Shown here piece after piece: positions 4,217 to 14,221 of a stretch of 64,000 nucleotides of DNA. This DNA comes from Gemmatimonadales bacterium (lineage in GTDB: Bacteria > Gemmatimonadota > Gemmatimonadetes > Gemmatimonadales > GWC2-71-9), in assembly GCA_041615815.1 (NCBI GenBank), contig JBFJCP010000015.1:1-64000 (forward strand). The letters run 5' to 3'. The first letter of the stretch is position 1, and every line of letters begins with the position of its first letter. The position numbers and the translations under genes are program-made. The notes under the pieces were generated by a model, which saw only the letters and a list, made by a program, of their open reading frames with translations, had not been told where the DNA came from and made no database searches.

Positions 4217-5257
4217 CTATGGTGTGGGTCGCGGCGTCCCGGCTCCATTGGGCGGCAGCATCGGATAGGCGATCTCCGGCTGCCGGCCCGTCAGCGAGAA
4301 GAGGAACGCGACGATCTTATCTACCTCTTGATCGTTGAGTGCGGTGCCCAATTGTGAGGCTCCCATGACCGCTACCGCTTGCCGGAGATCCCACGCCTTG
4401 CCGGAATGAAAGTACGGCGCGGTCAACACGACATTGCGGAGACTGGGGACCTTGAAGACGTACTCATCGCTCACCGTACCCGTCACCTCGAAGCGGCCCT
4501 TGTCCTCCCGGGGGAGGAGTTCCGCTCCCGGAATCTCCATCACGCCAAACGGCGCATAGCGGTTTCCGCCCACGTTGATCCCGTTGTGGCATTCGACGCA
4601 TTGCTTGTCCATGAACAACCGGAGCCCCTCCTTTTCCTGCGCGGTCATGGCGTCTTCGTCGCCAAGGAGATACCGGTCGAACGGCGCGTCGGGCGTGATC
4701 AAGGTGGCCTCGAACACGGCGATGAGCAGCCGGACGTTCTGGAAGGTGACGGGGTCGTCCTGCCCGGGGAACGCCTCGCGAAATCGGGCTACATACCCGG
4801 GAATCGCTTTGAGCTGCTCGACGACGTGATCCGGAGTGCTGCCCATCTCGAGGGGGTTGACCAGGGGCGTGGCCGCCTGCTTCTCCAAGTCCGGAGCCCG
4901 CCCATCCCAAAACTGGGCCGTATTGAATACCGCGTTGAACACGGTCGGGGCGTTCCGCCCACCACGCTGCCATCGGTGACCGATGGAAGTCTCGAGCGCA
5001 TCGACCCCCGCCAGGCCCACGTTGTGACACGTGTTGCAGCTGATGGTGTGGCTCCGCGAGAGGCGCGGCTCGAAGTAGAGCATCTTGCCAAGCTCCACCC
5101 TGGCAGTCGTCGGCTCGATCCCCTCCACCGCCGGCGGTTCGAGGGGGATGGGCCGGAAGGCAACACGCGCCCGCTCGAGCACGCTCTCCTGAGCGAGTGC
5201 AGAGCCCGAGAGACCCCAAGTCAGCAAGAAACCAAATAGCGCGACGCGCCGAATCAT
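4217..5257 (-). CDS. ccpA: Di-heme cytochrome c peroxidase
   Basis: Two CXXCH motifs (CNTCH, CVECH); FWDGRA and FKVPSLRNV...PYFH motifs; signal peptide; GAGGAGG RBS. Confidence 0.93.
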   Translation of the reverse strand: MIRRVALFGFLLTWGLSGSALAQESVLERARVAFRPIPLEPPAVEGIEPTTARVELGKMLYFEPRLSRSHTISCNTCHNVGLAGVDALETSIGHRWQRGGRNAPTVFNAVFNTAQFWDGRAPDLEKQAATPLVNPLEMGSTPDHVVEQLKAIPGYVARFREAFPGQDDPVTFQNVRLLIAVFEATLITPDAPFDRYLLGDEDAMTAQEKEGLRLFMDKQCVECHNGINVGGNRYAPFGVMEIPGAELLPREDKGRFEVTGTVSDEYVFKVPSLRNVVLTAPYFHSGKAWDLRQAVAVMGASQLGTALNDQEVDKIVAFLFSLTGRQPEIAYPMLPPNGAGTPRPTP

Positions 5258-5543
5258 ACCGTACCTCCTCACAGCTCCGATTGGTCTCCGCCCGTCCCGT
5301 GGCGAGCAGGTGGGTTCCAGGCCCTCAGGGTCGTCGCCGGGACGGGTGGCCGCGTGTCTATGGGTGCGCTGGAACGTGTGAAGAAATAGTGAAGTGTCAA
5401 GGAGGGTCCCACCCGGACCGTTATCTTCCTTGGGAGTCGACCCTCACGTCCGATTCATGGGGTCTTCACTCACCCCGTCCGAGAGGTAGGCAACCTGCGC
5501 CCTCCTCTCAAATGCGCAGCGCTGAAGGCGAGGTTGCTTGCTC

Positions 5544-6188
5544 ATGATTGACCCCACCGATGTCCTGCGTTTGATCAAGGGCCGCCGCACAGTGCGGCGA
5601 TTCGATCGCGATCGCCCCGTGGCACGGGCCAGTCTCGAACGCATTCTCGAAGCAGGAACATGGGCCCCATATGCCCCATACCATCCACAGGGTTGGAAGC
5701 TGGTTGCCCTGCTTGGCGAGGAGCGGGATCGAGCCGTCGCGACGGTGTGCAAGACGCAGACGGTCCTTAAGCATATTCGCAAGATGTACGAAGAGTCGCC
5801 CCTCGGCGGGGAACAGCAGGGGGACGAAGAACACCGTTGGAAGGAACTCGCACGCGATTTCGCGCAGCACCTGGGACACGCACCCATCCTCATCGTCGGA
5901 TTGGTCCCCCGTGCGATCAATCCAACGATCCGACTCCACGACGTCGGCTCGGTATGGGCCGCCGCGCAGAACATGATGCTCCAGGCACATGCGGAACGCC
6001 TCGCCGCCGGCGTCGTGACGTTTCAGTCATCCAAAGTCGAGCAGGAGCTCCTGCAACTCCTCAGCCTCGAGGAGAGCGAATGGCAGGTGGCATTTCTCCT
6101 GAACGTGGGGCATCCGCTCGAAACCCCCGTCGCCCCGCCACGCCGCGGCGGGTTGATCGAGATTCGGGAGGGCGAACCCGAGGACTAG
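5544..6188 (+). CDS. Nitroreductase family protein
   Basis: IKGRRTVRRF FMN-binding motif; AP...QGWK; AAAQNMMLQAH; terminal VGHP. Confidence 0.85.
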   Translation: MIDPTDVLRLIKGRRTVRRFDRDRPVARASLERILEAGTWAPYAPYHPQGWKLVALLGEERDRAVATVCKTQTVLKHIRKMYEESPLGGEQQGDEEHRWKELARDFAQHLGHAPILIVGLVPRAINPTIRLHDVGSVWAAAQNMMLQAHAERLAAGVVTFQSSKVEQELLQLLSLEESEWQVAFLLNVGHPLETPVAPPRRGGLIEIREGEPED

Positions 6189-7063
6189 AGCCGGCCAGCG
6201 AGCTCCACGATCGCCTCGACACCACCACGAACACCAAACGCGATCGTACCATCGGCGGTAACAATGTAGGCAAGCGCAGGATGCGTGACGTCGCCCGTCA
6301 GCGGGTCTCGCTGCCGGGGGACCCCCCACCCATCGAGCACCGCTTCCACATCGTCGACTGCCCCACTGACGATGAACTCGTCGGTACCGAGCTCCCATTT
6401 GCTGGCTAGATATGGCAACCGACTGGGAATGTCGCGCCAGGGATCCAGCGTCACGACGATCGCGTTCACCGCCCGGGTGGTGGCAAGACGACGGCGCGCC
6501 ACGAGCACATCTCGCACAATTGCCGGACAGATCGTCTGGCAGTGTCCAAAGGCGAATGTCACCAGCGTGACCTCACCGCGTAACTGCCCCAGACGCAGCG
6601 TATCGCCATGCTGATCCACGAGTGCCATGGCGGGAGCCGCCCGATCGAGCCGCGGATAGGTCTCGGGGAACACCACGGGCGCCTCGAGCCATGGCACCCC
6701 GGCGGCGGACGCGCTCCCCACCCTCCAAGTCGCGGCCGAGACGGCTACCAGGACCACGAGCATGGCCCCGGCAAGGACCGCGCGACCCGCTGGTCGATGG
6801 CGCAGACGCATGAAGGCCCTCGCGAGGGATCGACCCCAGATCACCCACACCGTGCCCAGCATGAGGATGGGCTGGAGGATCAGCGCGGTCCAACCGGCTG
6901 CGTCGGGCAGACCGTTGGGTCTGGTACCGAAACACACGTAGCGTGTGCGTTCCAGCCACACGGGGGCATCACTCACCGGCCAGAGCGCGAGGGCCCACCA
7001 CACCATCGTGATCGCGATCACGGTGGCAAGCACGACGAGACTGGTGACCCCCCGCTCTCGCAT
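6185..7063 (-). CDS. SCO family copper chaperone with N-terminal 3-TM domain
   Basis: FGHCQTICP (CxxxC), TLDP and a distal His (VTHP); lies downstream of the CuA enzyme genes. Confidence 0.88.
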   Translation of the reverse strand: MRERGVTSLVVLATVIAITMVWWALALWPVSDAPVWLERTRYVCFGTRPNGLPDAAGWTALILQPILMLGTVWVIWGRSLARAFMRLRHRPAGRAVLAGAMLVVLVAVSAATWRVGSASAAGVPWLEAPVVFPETYPRLDRAAPAMALVDQHGDTLRLGQLRGEVTLVTFAFGHCQTICPAIVRDVLVARRRLATTRAVNAIVVTLDPWRDIPSRLPYLASKWELGTDEFIVSGAVDDVEAVLDGWGVPRQRDPLTGDVTHPALAYIVTADGTIAFGVRGGVEAIVELAGRL

Positions 7064-7070
7064 AGCCGAT

Positions 7071-7268
7071 CTACCCAATCCGCCAAACGAACGACAGCAG
7101 CTTCCAATTCACGAAATAGTAGAGCACAAACGCCAGAAGAAAGACGAAAACCAGGATGACCGTTCCCGGGGTCCTTCCCCCGATCCCGTGCTCGGCATCC
7201 GCGTCGTCACCCGCCGGGGCTGGCCTCGGCGGTGTCACGATACCTTGGGGAACGCCGTAGAGTGGCAT
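7071..7268 (-). CDS. Single-TM subunit IIa-like (CoxIIa/CbaD-like) protein of the heme-copper enzyme
   Basis: ATG overlaps the subunit I stop (TAATG) and has its own GGAGG; PGTVILVFVFLLAFVLYYFVNW helix resembles ba3 subunit IIa. Confidence 0.65.
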   Translation of the reverse strand: MPLYGVPQGIVTPPRPAPAGDDADAEHGIGGRTPGTVILVFVFLLAFVLYYFVNWKLLSFVWRIG

Positions 7269-8788
7269 TATGCCTCCGATCCAGCTGGCATGGGACGGCC
7301 AAGAAAGACCGACCACACGGTGACGACGATGTAGATGGCCCCACCCACCGCAGCAATGAGCCCACCGACCGCCATGACCCCGATCACGAGATCCACGGCC
7401 GGCGAAAACTGCACGTCGAACGGCGCCTGGGAGAACGTCATGTCCCAGTGACGCCGAGGCGCCCCGAACGTACCGGCAAACGTCATGGCAACGGAGAAGA
7501 TCAGCATCCCCACCGCAAACAGATACGGCTGGATCTTGGCAAGCGGCCAGAACGCGATCTGCTTTCGGAAAATGAGGGGAATCACATAGTACGTGACGCC
7601 CATGAACGCCAGCGCCGTTCCCGCCACGACCGTCGCGTGGAAGTGACCGGGAATCCGGAGCGTATTGTGCGCGATGATGTTGATCTGCTCGGTCCCGAAC
7701 GTGACCCCAGTGATGCCCCCAACAAAGCCGAAGATGATGACCGAGAAGATGAGCGACGAAAAGCCCGGATCACCCCAGGGAGCTTTGCGCAGCCATTCGA
7801 ACAGACCCTTGGTGAGACCGCGCACCCGCTGGCCCAGCTCGACCCCCGCTGGCACCGTGAAGCCGTGGATCATGCTGGCGAGCACCGCCAGATACATGGC
7901 GTAGCTCGTATTCCAGACCTTCCACGTGGGACCCATTCCGGGATCCACCAGCAGGTGGTGCGCTGAGGCCATGGAGATGAACAAGACGTACAGCACGAAG
8001 GCCGCTCGGCTGATCTTCTCGTTGAGAACCACGGCACCCACGGTGAAGGCGCCCAGCAGATACCAGACCGACACCATCGCCGCCACATTGATCTGCTGCG
8101 ACGAGTGCCCCAGCCCCCACCACACGAGCCGATACACTTGGGCATCGACGTTCATGAGGCCCAGGGACCAGAGGAACGTCGGGATGTAGATCGCTGCCCC
8201 GTGCCCCAACGTGATCACGGCGATGATGGCGGCCGTCGCGGCCCCGAAGGTCACCAGCGGCACGGACCCTGTGTACGTTTTCTCGCGACGAGCGACGACC
8301 AAGGTCGCGAAGAAGATGCACACCACCAGGAGCGCGCCGACCGCGAACAAGATCACGCCCAGGTAGTACCACGGGGTGGCCTTGAGAGGCACGTAGGACG
8401 TAAACAGCACATCCGCCTTGCCGGCGAACATGGTCCATTCCACGATGAGGGTGCCGAGGACCATGAGCCCAAACGACCCCCATGCGAGACGCGGCGCGGC
8501 GACACGACTGTTGAGCAGCACCGCACTCGCGAAATACAGCACCGCCATCTCGAAGAACAGGATGAAGAAGATGAGCATGTTCATCCCGTGGATCGTGAGC
8601 ATGCGGTAGAACCACTCTGCGGAAAGCAGATGAACCGCCTGCCAGCGCGTGAGCATCACCAGCACGGCGGCGATCCCACCGATGAGCAGCGTCACGGTGG
8701 CCACGACGGCATTGGCCTTGATGAGGCCGTCGGCCTGCGCGTGCACTTTGAGCCCCGTCGTGGGGCACGTGCGGAAGCTCCCGTTCAT
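7268..8788 (-). CDS. Heme-copper oxidase superfamily subunit I, B-family-derived; probable eNOR-type nitric oxide reductase
   Basis: Six His ligands (TIHG, GHSSQQ, AHHL, GHFH); the H+4 cross-link Tyr position is Gln; about 12 TM helices. Confidence 0.85.
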   Translation of the reverse strand: MNGSFRTCPTTGLKVHAQADGLIKANAVVATVTLLIGGIAAVLVMLTRWQAVHLLSAEWFYRMLTIHGMNMLIFFILFFEMAVLYFASAVLLNSRVAAPRLAWGSFGLMVLGTLIVEWTMFAGKADVLFTSYVPLKATPWYYLGVILFAVGALLVVCIFFATLVVARREKTYTGSVPLVTFGAATAAIIAVITLGHGAAIYIPTFLWSLGLMNVDAQVYRLVWWGLGHSSQQINVAAMVSVWYLLGAFTVGAVVLNEKISRAAFVLYVLFISMASAHHLLVDPGMGPTWKVWNTSYAMYLAVLASMIHGFTVPAGVELGQRVRGLTKGLFEWLRKAPWGDPGFSSLIFSVIIFGFVGGITGVTFGTEQINIIAHNTLRIPGHFHATVVAGTALAFMGVTYYVIPLIFRKQIAFWPLAKIQPYLFAVGMLIFSVAMTFAGTFGAPRRHWDMTFSQAPFDVQFSPAVDLVIGVMAVGGLIAAVGGAIYIVVTVWSVFLGRPMPAGSEA

Positions 8789-9354
8789 GGCGCCCCTCCC
8801 GCGCTGGCCGTGCTTTGGGTGTCGTCCACCACGACGATCCGACCCACCATGAGGTGATGGCCGATCCCGCAGAACTCGTTACAGATGATGCGGAAGTCGC
8901 CGGCCTCGGTGGGAGTCACCCGAAGACCGTAGTCGTATCCCGGCACGACCTGGAAATTCACGTTGATGGGATAAAGGTTGAAACCATGATTGACGTCGAG
9001 CGAGGAGATGTGGAGGATGTACTCCGCATCCTTCTTGAGCCTCAGCGTGGGTCGCCAGCTCCACATGAGACCCACCAGATAGATGTCGCTGCCCGGTGGT
9101 GGCTCCACGATGGGGATGCCGTTTTCCTCCCCCACCTGATAGGCGTTGATGAATTCCTGGGTACGCGCCATGAAGGCTTCCGGCTCGACCTTGTGGCGAA
9201 TCCCAGAGGGATTCTGGCCCCCTTTGAAGTGCCAGAGCGGCATCATGGCGAACAGAACGAGGCACCAGGCGAACGCCACGATCACCCAAAACCGCTCGGC
9301 ACGGTGAGCGGGTTTCCACCAGATGCCCTGCGGTGACTCGATTCCGGTGTTCAT
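8785..9354 (-). CDS. Subunit II with CuA centre
   Basis: DVNHGF...CNEFCGIGHHLM CuA motif; single N-terminal TM helix; ATGA overlap with subunit I. Confidence 0.92.
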   Translation of the reverse strand: MNTGIESPQGIWWKPAHRAERFWVIVAFAWCLVLFAMMPLWHFKGGQNPSGIRHKVEPEAFMARTQEFINAYQVGEENGIPIVEPPPGSDIYLVGLMWSWRPTLRLKKDAEYILHISSLDVNHGFNLYPINVNFQVVPGYDYGLRVTPTEAGDFRIICNEFCGIGHHLMVGRIVVVDDTQSTASAGGAP

Positions 9355-9369: not shown

Positions 9370-9516
9370 TTAGGGCAGCGGGGCCGGTGGCAACGACAAC
9401 ACCTCCCACAACCCCCAGGCGGTGTAGAACACACCCATCACGAGGATCCCAGCGAGGAGGAGCAGGAACCAGTTGTCGAAGATCCGTTGGCCGAGCGGAG
9501 GTTTGGAGTTGGCCAT
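9370..9516 (-). CDS. Small single-TM protein (probable accessory subunit)
   Basis: AGGAGG RBS; 48 aa, PLGQRIFDNWFLLL...WGLWE; lies between rrf2 and subunit II. Confidence 0.7.
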   Translation of the reverse strand: MANSKPPLGQRIFDNWFLLLLAGILVMGVFYTAWGLWEVLSLPPAPLP

Positions 9517-9539: not shown

Positions 9540-9953
9540 TCAGGCCGCGATGGCCGTACCGGTCATGAGGTCGGCCACGGTGGTCTCCCGGAAAAACGTC
9601 GAGACCTGTTCCGACACCGCCTTCCAACGCCAGTGAGCCGCGCAGGCATGACGGTCACTGCATTGGGGGCGACCGAGGAGACAGCTTCGTTCCTCGGCGA
9701 TGCGATCGAACCGTTGGACAACGGTGAGCAGCGAGAGCTCCTCCGGCGGGTGCGCGAGCTGAAAGCCGCCGTGTTTTCCCCTGGAGGACGAGAGCACACC
9801 GTCGCGGGCCAGCTCATGCAGGATTTTGGACAGGTAGTTTCTGGGAATGCCGAGGGCCTCGGCCACGTCGCCAACCCGGACCGGCTGCTCCTCAGCATGG
9901 TTCGCCAGGTAGAGGACCGCCTTCAGGGCGTATTCGGCGGTGCTGGACAACAC
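9540..9953 (-). CDS. Rrf2 family transcriptional regulator with Fe-S Cys motif
   Basis: LSSTAEYALKA, YLSKILHEL and SSRGKHGGFQL motifs; C-x6-C-x5-C-x2-H; GGAGG RBS before GTG at 9953. Confidence 0.92.
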   Translation of the reverse strand: MLSSTAEYALKAVLYLANHAEEQPVRVGDVAEALGIPRNYLSKILHELARDGVLSSSRGKHGGFQLAHPPEELSLLTVVQRFDRIAEERSCLLGRPQCSDRHACAAHWRWKAVSEQVSTFFRETTVADLMTGTAIAA

Positions 9954-9996
9954 CTGGAACCTCCTTCCCGGGGCACCTGCTGGCATTCTTGTTATT

Positions 9997-10012
9997 ATCA
10001 TGTTAATATGAT
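9997..10012. promoter_or_regulatory. Candidate Rrf2 operator in the divergent promoter
   Basis: ATCATGTTAATATGAT, a 16-bp palindrome with 7 of 8 pairs, in the AT-rich patch between the divergent operons. Confidence 0.55.
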
Positions 10013-10060
10013 CTTTAAGCGTGCGCAAGACCACGACTCCGTTCCCCCTCGAGGAGCGCG

Positions 10061-11632
10061 ATGCCGCCATTGACCAACCGACTCACCCGCTGGGGCCGTT
10101 CCGTGCTCACCCCGACGGACGCGTTTATGAACCGCCTCTACGGGTGGCGCTTCAATCCCTTGTACCACAGCGGCGCCCTCACGGTGGCCCTGCTGGTGGT
10201 GGTGCTCGTTACCGGCGTCTATCTCCTGCTCTTCTATCGGCTGGGATCCCCCTACGCGTCGGTCGCCAACCTGAGTGCGCAGACGTGGTCCGGGAGTTGG
10301 GTCCGCTCGCTCCACCGCTATGCCTCCGACGCCGCCGTGGTCGCGGTCGTCGTCCACGCGTTTCGCATGTTCGTCCAGGGTCGCTCCTGGGGGCCGCGGG
10401 CTCTCGCGTGGGTGACCGGACTCATCCTCTTGTTCGTGCTGATGGTCTGTGGGTGGACGGGCTACGTGATGGTGTGGGACACGCAGGGACTCGTCCTCGC
10501 GCGCGAGGGTGCACGGTTTCTCGATGCCCTTCCCCTCTTCGCCGAGCCCATCAGCCGAACCTTCGTGGGCGAACGTCCCATCCCCAATGCATTCTTCTTT
10601 CTCAACCTCTTCCTGCACGTCGCACTTCCCGTGGGCATGGGCGTGATCCTCTGGTTGCATGTGTCGCGCGTGGCCCGCGCAGCACTCTGGCCGCCGCGGG
10701 GACTCACGTGGGGCACGCTTGGCCTGTTGATGGCGCTCTCCGTGCTGTGGCCCGCGAGTATCGGACCCGAGGCGGACCTGTTTCGCATCGCCGAGCACGC
10801 GCCCTTCGATGTCTTCTACTCGTTCTGGCTCCCGCTCGCGAGACCGCTGCCGGCCGGCGCAGTATGGGCGGTCGTGTTGGGGGCATGCGTGGTGGTCCTG
10901 TGCGTTCCACTTTGGGCCCGGCCGTCCTCGCACGTCACGCCTTCGCCCTCGGTGGTCGACGAACGGCTCTGCACGGGCTGTCGACAGTGTTACCTCGACT
11001 GCCCCTACGAAGCGATCGCGATGGTGCCGCGCACGGATGGGCGGGCCGAGGTCGTCGCGCGGATCGATCCGGATCTCTGCGTGAGTTGCGGGATCTGCGC
11101 AGGATCGTGCGCGCCCATGGGTGTGGGACCTCCACAGCGCACCGGCCGCGACCAACTGGGCGCCGTCAAAGCGTTCGTGGCTACGCGCCAACCCGGTCCG
11201 CGGGATGTCGTCGTGGTCGCCTGCAACCGGGGAGCGGGCGGCGCGGCCGCGGGACCCAGCCTGGACAGCTCGCCCGTCTTCGGATGGAATTGCGCCGGCA
11301 GCGTCCACACGTCCGTGGTCGAGTACCTGGTGCGCTGGGGTGTGGCCGGCGTGTTGATCCTGGCGTGCCCAGCCCGCGACTGCTGGAATCGCGAGGGTCC
11401 CAAGTGGTTGGAGCAACGGTTGTATCACGATCGAGAAGCTGAGCTCAAGGAGCGGGTGGACCGCCAACGGGTGCGGCTGCGATACGCGAGTGAGGGCGAG
11501 CGCGACACCGTGCGTGCGGAGCTTCGGGCCTTTCGAGAAGACCTCGCCGCGCTGGAAGGACCCACGCCCGAGCGTGAGATCGATCTGGATCTCGAGTGCG
11601 ACCCCGTGCCTGACGAGGAGGCGGTGGCATGA
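10061..11632 (+). CDS. Cytochrome b + 2x[4Fe-4S] ferredoxin + MvhD/FlpD-like [2Fe-2S] fusion protein
   Basis: Two His pairs 14 apart (LHRY...VH, LHV...LH) and GWTGY; CTGCRQCYLDCP and CVSCGICAGSC; VAC...NCAG...LACPARDC. Confidence 0.88.
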   Translation: MPPLTNRLTRWGRSVLTPTDAFMNRLYGWRFNPLYHSGALTVALLVVVLVTGVYLLLFYRLGSPYASVANLSAQTWSGSWVRSLHRYASDAAVVAVVVHAFRMFVQGRSWGPRALAWVTGLILLFVLMVCGWTGYVMVWDTQGLVLAREGARFLDALPLFAEPISRTFVGERPIPNAFFFLNLFLHVALPVGMGVILWLHVSRVARAALWPPRGLTWGTLGLLMALSVLWPASIGPEADLFRIAEHAPFDVFYSFWLPLARPLPAGAVWAVVLGACVVVLCVPLWARPSSHVTPSPSVVDERLCTGCRQCYLDCPYEAIAMVPRTDGRAEVVARIDPDLCVSCGICAGSCAPMGVGPPQRTGRDQLGAVKAFVATRQPGPRDVVVVACNRGAGGAAAGPSLDSSPVFGWNCAGSVHTSVVEYLVRWGVAGVLILACPARDCWNREGPKWLEQRLYHDREAELKERVDRQRVRLRYASEGERDTVRAELRAFREDLAALEGPTPEREIDLDLECDPVPDEEAVA

Positions 11633-12192
11633 ATCGAAGCGGTCTTCGCATCCTCGGTGCCACGACCGCCGTCGTGCTGACCGTCGCGATCGGCGCCTTG
11701 TCGCAGGTACCCTACGAGTCCGATCCGGGAGACCATGCGCTGATCCGGCTCGCCTGGAGGGTCCGCGGCACCCGGGTAGAGGAATGCCGTCGGCTCACGG
11801 AAGAGGAGCTGGCGAGGATACCTGTACACATGCGGCAGGAGGAGGAATGCGTCGGCCGGATCCTGCCGTATCGCCTGCAGGTGCTGCTGGACGATTCAGC
11901 CGTCGTGGATCAATTGGTGCGGCCGGCGGGCGCGCGTGAGGATCGCCCCCTCTACGTCTTTCACGAACGAAGTGTGACACCAGGCGCCCACGAGCTGATC
12001 GTGCGGTTTGAGCTCGATCGCGGAAGCGGGCCGGCGCGTGCTCCGGATACCACCGCCACCCGCGGGAGCGACACGACCCCGTCCGTACTGGAGCTTCGCA
12101 CGCGGCTTGACATGCGCTCCAAGGAGGTGGCGCTCGTCACCTACGATAACGAGCGGCGACAGCTCGTCGTGCAAGGCTACGGCACGCCGTGA
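11629..12192 (+). CDS. Membrane-anchored hypothetical protein with C-x(n)-HM-x(n)-C motif
   Basis: ATGA overlap with the upstream gene; N-terminal hydrophobic helix; ECRRLTEEELARIPVHMRQEEEC. Confidence 0.78.
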   Translation: MNRSGLRILGATTAVVLTVAIGALSQVPYESDPGDHALIRLAWRVRGTRVEECRRLTEEELARIPVHMRQEEECVGRILPYRLQVLLDDSAVVDQLVRPAGAREDRPLYVFHERSVTPGAHELIVRFELDRGSGPARAPDTTATRGSDTTPSVLELRTRLDMRSKEVALVTYDNERRQLVVQGYGTP

Positions 12193-13481
12193 CCGTGACC
12201 TCCCCACCGCTTCGCACCGCGGCTGCACCCCGGCCAGCGGATATCATGCCCCCACTGGTGCTTCCGGCCCAACATTTCGCCGCGGCGCTCGTCTGGCTGG
12301 CCCTCGGTGCAGCTGGTTTGATCATCATCGCGCCGGATCTCGCGCGGGGAGCGTTCCTCACACCTCGCGTCATCGCCGTGACGCACTGTTTCACGCTCGG
12401 CTGGATCACCACCTCGATCTTCGGCGCGCTCTACCAGCTGTACCCGGTGGCGCTCGGCGTGCCGGCCCGAAGCATCCGGGTGGCCCATGTGACGTTCTGG
12501 GCCCTGCTGAGCGGTACCGCGCTCCTCGTTGTCGGTTCGTGGCTGTGGTCCCCGGCAGCCCTCGCCGCCGGATGGCTCGTCATGTTCGGCGCGGTCGGCG
12601 GGCAGTCCTGGAATGTCGTGGCCGGCCGACGACGTGCCACCCGAGGGAAGACCATCGGTCTCTACGTGTCCGCGGGGCACATGGGCTTGGGTCTGGCCAT
12701 GTTCGTCGTCGCCGTCCGGATCGGGGCGGCGTTCGACTGGTGGTCGGTGGATCGCCTCGGCGTGCTAAGCGCCCACGCGCACCTCGCCGTCGTTGGCTTC
12801 GCGACGCTGACCGTGGTCGGCGTCGGGAGCAAACTGTTCCCGATGTTCCTGCTCTCCCGAGGATACCCCGAGTGGCCACTCCGCTGGATTGGACCACTGA
12901 TCTTCGGTGGACTCGTGCTGTTCACACCCGGCGAGCTCATGCACGTTCGGTGGCTGGTGGTGGGAGGCGGTGGCGCAATGGCGCTCGGGGTGGTGCTCTA
13001 TCTGGCGCTGGTGTCGCGATACGTCCGAACCAAGACGAAGGCGACGCTCGAGCCGGCGCTCGCCCATGGCATCCTGGCGCTCGCCTTCCTCGCCGTCGCC
13101 CTGATGCTCGGTGTCACCGTGCTCCTGCGGCCATGGTCCGCCCGCGTCATCACGGCGTACGCGGCCGCAGGCATTCTCGGGTGGCTCTCCATCTTGATTG
13201 TGGGGATGTACTACAAGATCGTGCCGTTTCTCACCTGGCTGCATTGGTTCAGTCCCAAGGTCGGTCAGCCAGGGCTGCCCAAGGTGGCCGACCTCGTTTG
13301 GACGAGGGCGATCTGGGCCACCCTCGCGCTCCTCGGCGCCGGGATCGCAACACTGCTCATGGGTGTCCTCCTCGGATCGGGCAATGCGGCGACCGCAGGT
13401 GCTGCGGCCTACGCGGCCGGGGTAGGGCTCGTCGTCGCCCAGTACGTTCGGCTGGCCGCACACCGACCGGCCCAACCATGA
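12189..13481 (+). CDS. Polytopic (about 12 TM) His-containing membrane protein, NnrS/HCO-subunit-I-like
   Basis: Three pseudo-repeats (THCFTLGW...LYQLYP; HAHLAVVGF...KLFPMF; AYAAAGILGW...YKIVPF); GTGA overlap with the upstream gene. Confidence 0.75.
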   Translation: MTVTSPPLRTAAAPRPADIMPPLVLPAQHFAAALVWLALGAAGLIIIAPDLARGAFLTPRVIAVTHCFTLGWITTSIFGALYQLYPVALGVPARSIRVAHVTFWALLSGTALLVVGSWLWSPAALAAGWLVMFGAVGGQSWNVVAGRRRATRGKTIGLYVSAGHMGLGLAMFVVAVRIGAAFDWWSVDRLGVLSAHAHLAVVGFATLTVVGVGSKLFPMFLLSRGYPEWPLRWIGPLIFGGLVLFTPGELMHVRWLVVGGGGAMALGVVLYLALVSRYVRTKTKATLEPALAHGILALAFLAVALMLGVTVLLRPWSARVITAYAAAGILGWLSILIVGMYYKIVPFLTWLHWFSPKVGQPGLPKVADLVWTRAIWATLALLGAGIATLLMGVLLGSGNAATAGAAAYAAGVGLVVAQYVRLAAHRPAQP

Positions 13482-13765
13482 ACCCCGCAACACTCGAAGC
13501 CCGCCAACAAGCTGTCTATCACCAGCTGCGCCGCGTGATGGATCCCGAGTTGGGAATGAGCATCGTCAAGCTCGGCTTGGTCTATGACATCGATGTACAA
13601 CAAGGTGCGGCCGTGGTCACGATGACACTCACGACTCCAGGGTGCCCCTTGGAAGACGCCATCACGCAAGGGGTCGAGCGTGTGGTAGGGGAGCTACCGT
13701 GGGTGGAGCGCGTGGATGTAAAGCTCGTGTGGCACCCGCCATGGCACCCCGGAATGATACGCTGA
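13478..13765 (+). CDS. DUF59/SufT-like metal-sulfur cluster assembly factor
   Basis: DPELGMSIVKLGLVY, TLTTPGCP and WHPPW motifs; ATGA overlap with the upstream gene. Confidence 0.9.
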   Translation: MNPATLEARQQAVYHQLRRVMDPELGMSIVKLGLVYDIDVQQGAAVVTMTLTTPGCPLEDAITQGVERVVGELPWVERVDVKLVWHPPWHPGMIR

Positions 13766-13777
13766 AAGGAACCCATC

Positions 13778-14221
13778 ATGGAATCGACGACAAATCCCCA
13801 ACCCATCGCTCTCGACGTCCGTCCCGTCCTGGCTGCGGGCGAAGAGCCCTTCGACATGATCATGCAGGCAGCGGTGCGTGTACCCGCGGGCGGAGCGCTC
13901 GAGATCACGGCACCCTTCGAACCCATTCCACTGTACCGCGTGCTGTCGCTGCGCGGCTTTGGCCATCGCACCGAGCAGCGGGACGCAGACGAATTCGTGG
14001 TGCATTTCACGAGAACCAGCATTACGACCGACGCCCGTGTGGGAGAGATCTACGAGCGGTATCCGGCTACCGGAGCGGTCCTCGCCAACTACAACGTCGA
14101 TCTCTGCTGCGGCGGCGAACTCAGCCTGACGGTGGTTGCGCAGGCCAATGGCGTGACCGTGGAAGCGTTGCTGGAGTCGCTGCAGCAGTCTGTCGTCGAG
14201 GCGCTCAGAACCCAACGTTGA
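13778..14221 (+). CDS. DUF2249 + DUF542/ScdA_N two-domain protein
   Basis: LDVR...GEEPF...APFEPIPLY (DUF2249) followed by VGEI...YP...VDLCCGG (RIC N-terminal domain). Confidence 0.82.
   Translation: MESTTNPQPIALDVRPVLAAGEEPFDMIMQAAVRVPAGGALEITAPFEPIPLYRVLSLRGFGHRTEQRDADEFVVHFTRTSITTDARVGEIYERYPATGAVLANYNVDLCCGGELSLTVVAQANGVTVEALLESLQQSVVEALRTQR

Follow-up and report, generated by a model that had tools for sequence, protein, structure and literature searches.

A Rieske-less cytochrome b–ferredoxin–MvhD module that accompanies the eNOR nitric oxide reductase and may supply it with electrons

The locus

We analysed a stretch of 64,000 nucleotides, called the window below, from a Gemmatimonadales bacterium (GenBank assembly GCA_041615815.1, contig JBFJCP010000015.1, positions 1 to 64,000). 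Two of its genes, joined by an ATGA overlap, encode a 523-amino acid (aa) fusion of a di-haem cytochrome b with a ferredoxin-like and an MvhD-like domain, and a protein of 187 aa; the pair is referred to here as the module. The adjacent operon encodes a haem-copper oxidase which, from its residues, belongs to the eNOR family of nitric oxide (NO) reductases. A first-pass annotation had proposed that the fusion is a transmembrane wire which serves the neighbouring NO reductase. The module follows eNOR closely across several phyla, and its two proteins are predicted to dock on eNOR subunit I. The features of the locus are presented in Table 1; L, G and C numbers denote the loci, genomes and contigs of our collections.

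Table 1. Features of the module locus, with positions in the window
Feature	Position	Strand	Remarks
Cytochrome b–2x[4Fe-4S]–MvhD fusion, 523 aa	10061..11632	+	ORF, Pfam, AlphaFold, homologue alignment
Six-helix di-haem cytochrome b domain	10061..10933	+	His85, 99, 186, 200; remodelled Qo loop with Asp250
Motif LPxFxEPIxRxF, residues 157-168 in the cytochrome b domain			family-wide; predicted eNOR contact
2x[4Fe-4S] ferredoxin domain (Cys304-314, Cys340-350)	10952..11113	+	homologous to HdrA C-terminal ferredoxin domain
MvhD/FlpD domain, Cys388, 411, 436, 441, putative [2Fe-2S]	11207..11554	+	
Split C-terminal partner, 187 aa	11629..12192	+	one membrane helix and periplasm-facing beta-sandwich, Cys53/Cys74, no Pfam family
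Palindrome TTATCAT-N6-ATGATAA, conserved, with 2 mismatches in this sequence	9995..10014	.	candidate Rrf2 operator, divergent promoter
Rrf2-family regulator, three Cys and one His	9540..9953	-	first eNOR operon gene
48-aa single-helix protein	9370..9516	-	conserved before eNOR subunit II
eNOR subunit II, CuA type, Glu20	8785..9354	-	
eNOR subunit I (His228, Gln232, Tyr243, Ser305, His308)	7268..8788	-	
Split-off last helix of subunit I	7071..7268	-	fused to subunit I in other phyla
Sco1/SenC copper chaperone with N-terminal membrane domain	6185..7078	-	
430-aa membrane protein, SufT-like, DUF2249/ScdA_N genes	12189..14221	+	coupled downstream
ORF, open reading frame.

Domains and conserved residues of the module

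Three Pfam domains lie over the cut-off in the 523-aa protein: Cytochrome_B (residues 32-202), Fer4 (298-350) and FlpD (409-498). AlphaFold (pLDDT 80.3, pTM 0.79) predicts six membrane-length helices followed by two Fe-S domains, in agreement with the helix number given at first pass; a plain hydropathy scan of the cytochrome b region finds only four. In Foldseek searches a bc1 cytochrome b is matched over about 290 columns, and the tail matches the MvhD of 5odc_D. Concerning relatives, a word search found 3402 among 8000 candidates, those with names being Gemmatimonadota, and a profile search of 50%-identity representatives gave 551 matches at E 1e-30 or better. Conservation was counted in the 136 of 150 listed homologues that have at least 480 aa, the 14 shorter ones being dropped. 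All four haem ligands are invariant in these sequences, the eight ferredoxin cysteines are kept in 135-136, and the MvhD cysteines in 134 (C388, C411 and C436) or 111 (C441), so that the haem ligands, the two [4Fe-4S] motifs and the four-Cys domain described at first pass are confirmed by alignment and Pfam. Under the topology of cytochrome b the chain exits helix F on the cytoplasmic side, and the Fe-S domains would therefore be cytoplasmic, as had also been suggested; this placement rests on the six helices and on the absence of an export signal.

The loop which corresponds to the PEWY motif of the Qo site is indeed degenerate and reads P248-F-D250-V-F-Y. It does not match the literal PDWF motif either, the aligned residues being F249-D-V-F252; across the homologues these positions hold Asp in 128, Trp in 49 and Phe in 85 of the 136, and the proteobacterial copies carry xDWF. 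The motif Pro is lost, Pro being rare at the first position throughout the family. Trp139 and Asp140 are kept in 133-134 sequences. The pocket position that aligns with a small Gly/Ala residue of b6 (G143 in yeast numbering) is occupied by Val, Leu or Ile in 123 of the 136. The Cys of haem ci is missing and His36 stands in its position. Based on the motif and the pocket residue, the protein does not have an intact Qo site with a PEWY-type motif and a small pocket residue.

Residues 290-498 align unbroken with positions 565-771 of the HdrA2 model (777 positions, E 2.8e-18), and among solved structures the ferredoxin part best matches C-terminal domains of HdrA; the tail therefore looks like the end of an HdrA–MvhD fusion without the flavin domain. 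Proteins in frames of 760-940 aa (G387:C78, G388:C5, G327:C42) share only the Fer4–MvhD tail and are probably HdrA–MvhD fusions in alphaproteobacteria and Rhodothermia.

Concerning the 187-aa protein, its profile matches 104 of the 109 listed representatives with at least 600 aa (one of the 104 via a short internal piece) and none of the 41 shorter ones. By these matches it is the split-off C-terminal part of the module, which is fused in most long homologues. Its fold is predicted with a pLDDT of 90.4. No Foldseek match was found at E 0.001, the best fold match (Z 7.9 over 97 residues, root-mean-square deviation 3.6) is within background, and an Atlas search returned unnamed clusters only. 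A redox centre in this protein was considered and rejected: Opitutae lack the Cys pair, the His-Met pair is Asn-Met in many proteobacteria, and no metal motif in it is common to all clades.

The source genome is 95.7% complete and also holds nosZ, a nirK-like gene and three other haem-copper subunits I. Family searches of the contig (C15) gave no match for Rieske (PF00355), NiFe-hydrogenase or a second FlpD, cytochrome c1 not being searched by family, and the Pfam scan of the window ORFs extended up to about 24 kb; the reported lack of Rieske and hydrogenase genes thus holds for the whole contig. The eight Rieske matches of the genome are all on other contigs, and on contig C20 a Rieske gene is paired with its own PEWY-cytochrome b. 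That pair (L084, G000:C20:76000-86000) is flanked by several multihaem cytochrome genes and no cytochrome c1 gene. There is one FlpD match genome-wide and the tail finds only itself, which gives no HdrA partner, no HdrA family model having been searched. A hydrogenase or Hdr partner was rejected, since the NiFe hydrogenase has an operon to itself, in which a b-type subunit is already encoded, and no paralogue of the tail exists.

Distribution of the module and of eNOR

The neighbouring oxidase is assigned to eNOR by Gln232, which replaces the cross-linked Tyr, by the K-channel Tyr243 with Ser305 and His308, and by Glu20 of subunit II. The accessible text of Murali 2024 (PMC11214002) gives the same Gln, Tyr, Ser, His and subunit II Glu for the family, and the residues of both subunits sit at the spacings of its Dataset S1. 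NO reduction by the module-linked type would follow from this assignment.

Module loci were gathered with four queries. Their record titles belong to Gemmatimonadota, Bdellovibrionota, Methylomirabilota, Myxococcota, Nitrospirota, Pseudomonadota, Verrucomicrobiota, Rhodothermia, Calditrichota, Spirochaetota and Planctomycetota. Among loci with a flank of 5 kb or more upstream and 3 kb or more downstream, an HxSQQ-type subunit I is found within the module locus in 41/43, 50/50, 38/39 and 48/48 cases by query (177/180 in sets which overlap, the first two sharing contigs). Of five exceptional loci that were examined, four come from genomes with a full eNOR elsewhere, and the genome of the fifth has only a 95-residue fragment. 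The gene order across phyla is subunit II – subunit I – (cyoE) – sco – module. Nearby genes are cyoE (92 loci), a degenerate COX1-like protein (73 loci) and hemerythrin (50 loci), and no Rieske gene is found among the 60 largest clusters of neighbouring genes, only some of which are annotated. The degenerate COX1-fold protein (e.g. L209:7260-8582, L276:3865-5304, L246:4009-5607), of which no copy was found in the source genome, is probably the ‘scaffold’ of Becker 2026 (bioRxiv 10.64898/2026.01.22.701106). The bacteriohemerythrin gene lies directly after or inside the module genes at L239:11059-11454 and 49 other proteobacterial loci.

Co-occurrence was examined by paired whole-genome searches in both directions across 776 genomes in five groups, archaeal eNORs lying outside the sample. 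Overall, eNOR is found in 96 of the 97 module genomes, and the module in 96 of the 103 eNOR genomes. The pairing proposed at first pass therefore stands, and a distribution independent of NO reductases, which would have spoken against it, is not what we find; the idea that every eNOR needs the module does not hold. In Gemmatimonadota the module is present in 58 of 251 genomes, eNOR in 58 and both in 57, and every one of the 57 genomes with an eNOR of at least 70% identity has the module. G188 has a 48% eNOR and no module. G125 (L090) retains module, sco and rrf2 in pieces with eNOR gone, and in L068 subunit I ends after about 99 residues beside an intact module; both loci are either decaying or misassembled. 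Twenty further matches of 32-36% in this phylum were set aside as other B-family enzymes, with a motif check in G000 only. The class of G251 contains eNOR in 14 of 121 genomes and the full module in 8, all within the 14, three partial matches being set aside. Module, eNOR and both are found in 6, 6 and 6 of 22 genomes in the order of G252 (11 genomes with partial weak matches set aside), in 3, 3 and 3 of 201 in the class of G253, and in 22, 22 and 22 of 181 in the order of G254. A link with nos genes, which the first-pass annotation had suggested testing, was rejected as too loose: within Gemmatimonadota, nosZ is present in 32 of 58 module genomes and in 63 of 193 others.

The seven module-less eNORs share the sequence type YWIIGHG[ST]QQINL, and a quick tree places them in one group at an SH-aLRT support of 100%. 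The Thermus and Thermomicrobium plasmid eNORs, with no module on the plasmid, are of unsure position, because long branches meet in this quick tree, and a single origin of the module-less type is unproven for the same reason. Four module-less Rhodothermia proteins match the numbering of the characterised enzyme exactly (Q245, Y256, S318, H321 and subunit II E21), whereas a module-linked eNOR from the same class does not fit it; the module-less branch thus seems to include the sole biochemically characterised eNOR. Module-less loci which also lack sco are L343-L348, L089, L327 and L328, and in six Rhodothermia loci a gene of 256-296 aa without an NCBIfam family follows subunit I.

Predicted complex with eNOR subunit I

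A complex of eNOR subunit I with the cytochrome b domain (residues 1-291) and the 187-aa partner was modelled, with alignments from the same 90 loci. The three-chain model scores 0.79, and the best of the three controls 0.19; the score mark, which 116 of 157 solved complexes and 2 of 215 mismatched pairs reach, applies only roughly to three chains with custom alignments. Repeated runs have at least 93% of contacts in common, and the partner has a pLDDT of at least 83. The modelled contacts are found in residues 154-184 of cytochrome b, adjoining His186, in 44-49, 63-68 and 100-107 of the partner, and in 50-61, 123-138 and 437-474 of subunit I. In this fold the subunit I segments would lie around the low-spin haem, at the outer side. 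On the cytochrome b side of the contact, P158, F160, P163, R166 and F184 are kept in 76-90 of 91 rows. Conserved contact positions of subunit I are changed in 8/15 cases in module-less and 66/261 in other sequences (Fisher p 0.03), a weak difference because 7 of the 9 sequences come from one clade. No eNOR is present among the solved structures, ba3 oxidases being the nearest. The model supports docking of cytochrome b and its partner on subunit I, and with it the wire-like role suggested at first pass.

Tail interchange and the direction of electron flow

Two module copies are present in 19 of 22 betaproteobacterial genomes. The 21 betaproteobacterial loci contain 20 reductase-tailed and 17 Fer4–MvhD-tailed copies of one cytochrome b, and one unassigned copy. 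The reductase tail is a [2Fe-2S]–FAD–NAD(P)H reductase of the BenC/MmoC kind (FAD, flavin adenine dinucleotide), and both tail types occupy the same operon position, before the 187-aa partner. The sole copy is of the reductase type in two genomes and of the MvhD type in one. In two Nitrospirota loci a gene for a NuoF-like, NADH-binding subunit is coupled to the module (L179:5053-6363, L180:1-1221), in L179 between two full copies. The normal activity of both [2Fe-2S]–FAD reductase and NuoF-like domains is NAD(P)H oxidation; the cytoplasmic end would therefore be the input, and the tail interchange points to electrons which enter the module from that side.

Interpretation and alternatives

Building on the observed domains, ligand conservation, gene linkage and tail interchange, we propose that the two proteins form one membrane module on subunit I of the adjacent eNOR and supply it with cytoplasmic electrons, a proposal to which we give an even chance of being correct. 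A cytoplasmic donor, either a ferredoxin or flavodoxin or an NAD(P)H-oxidising flavoprotein, would reduce the MvhD cluster, from which electrons would pass to the two [4Fe-4S] clusters, to haem bH, across the membrane to haem bL, and to eNOR on the low-spin haem side. This route assumes cofactor loading, topology, direction of flow, donor and haem-to-haem transfer. It would reduce NO with neither a Rieske protein nor a soluble cytochrome c and would conserve little energy; possible uses are the removal of NO, or holding eNOR reduced. A broader version, put forward tentatively and with more doubt than confidence, is that most eNORs are larger complexes in which a docked Rieske-less cytochrome b feeds in NAD(P)H or ferredoxin electrons, CuA being bypassed; in its boldest form NO reduction would drive NAD+ or ferredoxin reduction by electron splitting at a surviving quinone site.

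Several points weigh against the proposed donor role. Seven of the 103 eNOR genomes and 11 of 12 eNOR-bearing plasmids have no module, and the fit of the characterised enzyme to the module-less type means that eNOR can function without it. None of the seven module-less eNORs from genomes that were inspected has sco beside it, as would be expected if the module served maturation. The neighbour-gene analysis gives no conserved donor gene beside the MvhD type, and Hdr complexes pass electrons from the HdrA clusters to the MvhD-type cluster, in the opposite order, according to the text available of PMC12350162. The pocket position has a small Ser in 12 of the 17 betaproteobacterial MvhD copies; because of this and of the kept Asp250, Trp139 and Asp140, the quinone site may survive, and input from cytochrome c could still occur because subunit II keeps its CuA ligands. 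Also, the model covers only the protein chains of the cytochrome b domain, the partner and subunit I, and four of the five co-occurrence searches are centred on a genome picked for its module, the kin within them not being independent.

The absence of sco beside module-less eNORs would suit a maturation reductase, which we consider unlikely: the module would bind subunit I as an assembly factor and pass cytoplasmic electrons outward to copper, to Sco or CuA thiols, or to a haem or iron centre during eNOR assembly. The gene order shared across phyla and the nearby cyoE, hemerythrin and degenerate COX1-like genes speak for such a role, and the complex model with subunit I is also compatible with it. 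However, the model (built without Sco) puts the contact near the low-spin haem, by the bL ligand and not at Sco, two copies with different donor tails in most of the betaproteobacterial genomes seem much for an occasional task, and the accessible text of Becker 2026 (bioRxiv 10.64898/2026.01.22.701106) reports both copies in the Ferrigenium proteome. It is rather improbable that the module is a Rieske-less quinol dehydrogenase, in which the remodelled Qo site oxidises quinol and bL reduces eNOR, with the Fe-S arm as a secondary input or relay. The kept Asp250, Trp139 and Asp140 and the bc1-like fold agree with it, and PDWF is ranked as a Qo motif in the relevant passages of Kao & Hunte (PMC4122944); the loss of the motif Pro, the Trp found in only 49 of 136 and the bulky pocket do not, and the Fe-S ligands are conserved to the same degree as those of the haems, more than a secondary arm would call for.

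Quinol would also be the source in an NO-driven reverse flow (Becker et al. 2026), quite improbable in our view, in which its electrons are split between eNOR and a bL–bH–Fe-S chain to NAD+ or ferredoxin. Here eNOR could replace the missing Rieske acceptor and is placed by the model at the cd2 face, the acid of the Qo loop is kept, and the ferredoxin-to-MvhD order of Hdr, as given in the part of PMC12350162 available, corresponds to the outward direction. Set against this, b haems usually lie well above NAD+ and 2x[4Fe-4S] ferredoxins in potential and the membrane potential opposes the step; the pocket appears narrowed, and the module often occurs in lineages that are not known to be lithoautotrophic. 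That the fusion is an ordinary bc subunit which borrows a Rieske protein encoded elsewhere is hardly credible, despite the eight Rieske matches on other contigs: one of these genes already stands beside its own cytochrome b on C20, the annotated neighbour clusters offer no candidate, and the module tracks eNOR almost exactly.

The eNOR operon, the divergent promoter and other genes

The genes of the operon are, in order, rrf2, the 48-aa protein, subunit II, subunit I, its split last helix and sco. The first-pass annotation had the fusion share a divergent promoter with the eNOR operon, and this can be refined, the gene directly divergent from the module being the Rrf2 regulator which heads the operon. 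The divergent layout is typical in Gemmatimonadota; in most other phyla the module lies within the eNOR operon. The palindrome between the two genes is the sole match of the genome at up to 2 mismatches. If up to 3 mismatches are allowed, it occurs in 60 of the 90 divergent loci that have rrf2 and in 7 of the 18 that lack it, some loci being duplicates; shuffled sequences yielded about 0.3, although this null is weak where patches are AT-rich. The palindrome is therefore a candidate for the operator of the adjacent Rrf2 protein.

The genes coupled downstream of the module were rejected as core parts, being present in 10, 2 and 10 of 80 related loci; the 430-aa membrane protein has no Pfam or NCBIfam match, and the set looks like a metal or nitrosative-stress cassette. 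Just past sco are a di-haem cytochrome c peroxidase gene (4217-5272, -) and a nitroreductase-like gene (5538-6188, +), neither of which is conserved across the 80 related loci.

Relation to known systems

The module is real, conserved and biochemically uncharacterised, as stated at first pass; its architecture, though, has been in print since 2014. The passages of Kao & Hunte 2014 (PMC4122944), the only work on PDWF cytochrome b that we found, describe a ‘PDWF-FeS’ clade in which cytochrome b is joined to 4Fe-4S and MvhD in Magnetospirillum magneticum and Turneriella parva, and to ferredoxin and a flavin oxidoreductase in Alicycliphilus, with no Rieske gene in the cluster. Based on architecture and on homologues from related taxa, we place the module in this family: both have the 4Fe-4S and MvhD fusion and lack a Rieske gene in the cluster, whereas the motif here is F-D-V-F and those passages give three examples with no function or eNOR link. 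All three taxa appear as eNOR bearers in the Murali 2024 material (PMC11214002), a connection which the Kao & Hunte passages do not make.

According to the parts of Becker et al. 2026 (bioRxiv 10.64898/2026.01.22.701106) at hand, the eNOR operon of Ferrigenium straubiae contains two cytochrome b-FeS genes, whose proteins are found in the proteome; the authors describe them as ‘rather unusual’, suggest them as markers of Ferrigenium, and propose that they act as a quinol:NAD+ oxidoreductase in a supercomplex with eNOR. They belong to the same family as the module: the reductase-type copy of L209 has 76% identity to a protein named F. straubiae. In contrast to that proposal, the family appears here as near-universal in the larger eNOR group, we identify the MvhD domain and the periplasmic partner, and we favour the opposite direction.

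With b6 plus subunit IV of b6f and with bc1 cytochrome b, the module has in common the four-helix di-haem core, the four His and helices E and F with the ef loop; unlike them it has no Rieske gene in the cluster and no c1 gene (c1 not being searched by family), no haem-ci Cys, no intact PEWY and a bulky pocket, and carries Fe-S domains after helix F. The tail resembles the C-terminal ferredoxin and MvhD parts of HdrA2-type fusions, but the module lacks the FAD domain and HdrBC. NosR, NapH/NosH and CcoG are analogues, being membrane proteins with cytoplasmic 2x[4Fe-4S] that serve one terminal reductase; no NosR, NapH or CcoG model matched the module. Another analogue is SoxABCD of Sulfolobales, in which the cytochrome b homologue SoxC is associated with a haem-copper enzyme and has no Fe-S tail; the SoxC model scores 61 on the module against a cut-off of 740.

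The characterised eNOR of R. marinus was a two-subunit preparation assayed with tetramethyl-p-phenylenediamine (TMPD)/ascorbate, which contains haem As and reduces NO and not O2; Table 1 of the same study lists eNOR in 547 GTDB genomes, and its accessible text identifies no natural electron donor (Murali 2024, PMC11214002). The gene is not mentioned in the available parts of PMC6431628, PMC8879329 and PMC10734462. Our literature search, which covered few subscription papers, found none on an MvhD–cytochrome b fusion with a haem-copper enzyme, and the supplement of Murali 2024 may map the gene.

Significance

Since eNOR is a widespread source of N2O, the supply of its electrons is of wider interest, and the question of its donor becomes testable through a near-obligate partner whose binding surface is predicted. 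How most eNORs are supplied with electrons can be tested directly from the predicted interface, the tail swap, the two eNOR types and the tight linkage. Based on the split between module-linked and module-less types, the sole characterised eNOR may not represent the majority. If the proposal is true, the respiratory architecture would be an unusual one, with a haem-copper enzyme fed directly from the cytoplasm via a bc-type cytochrome b that it has captured.

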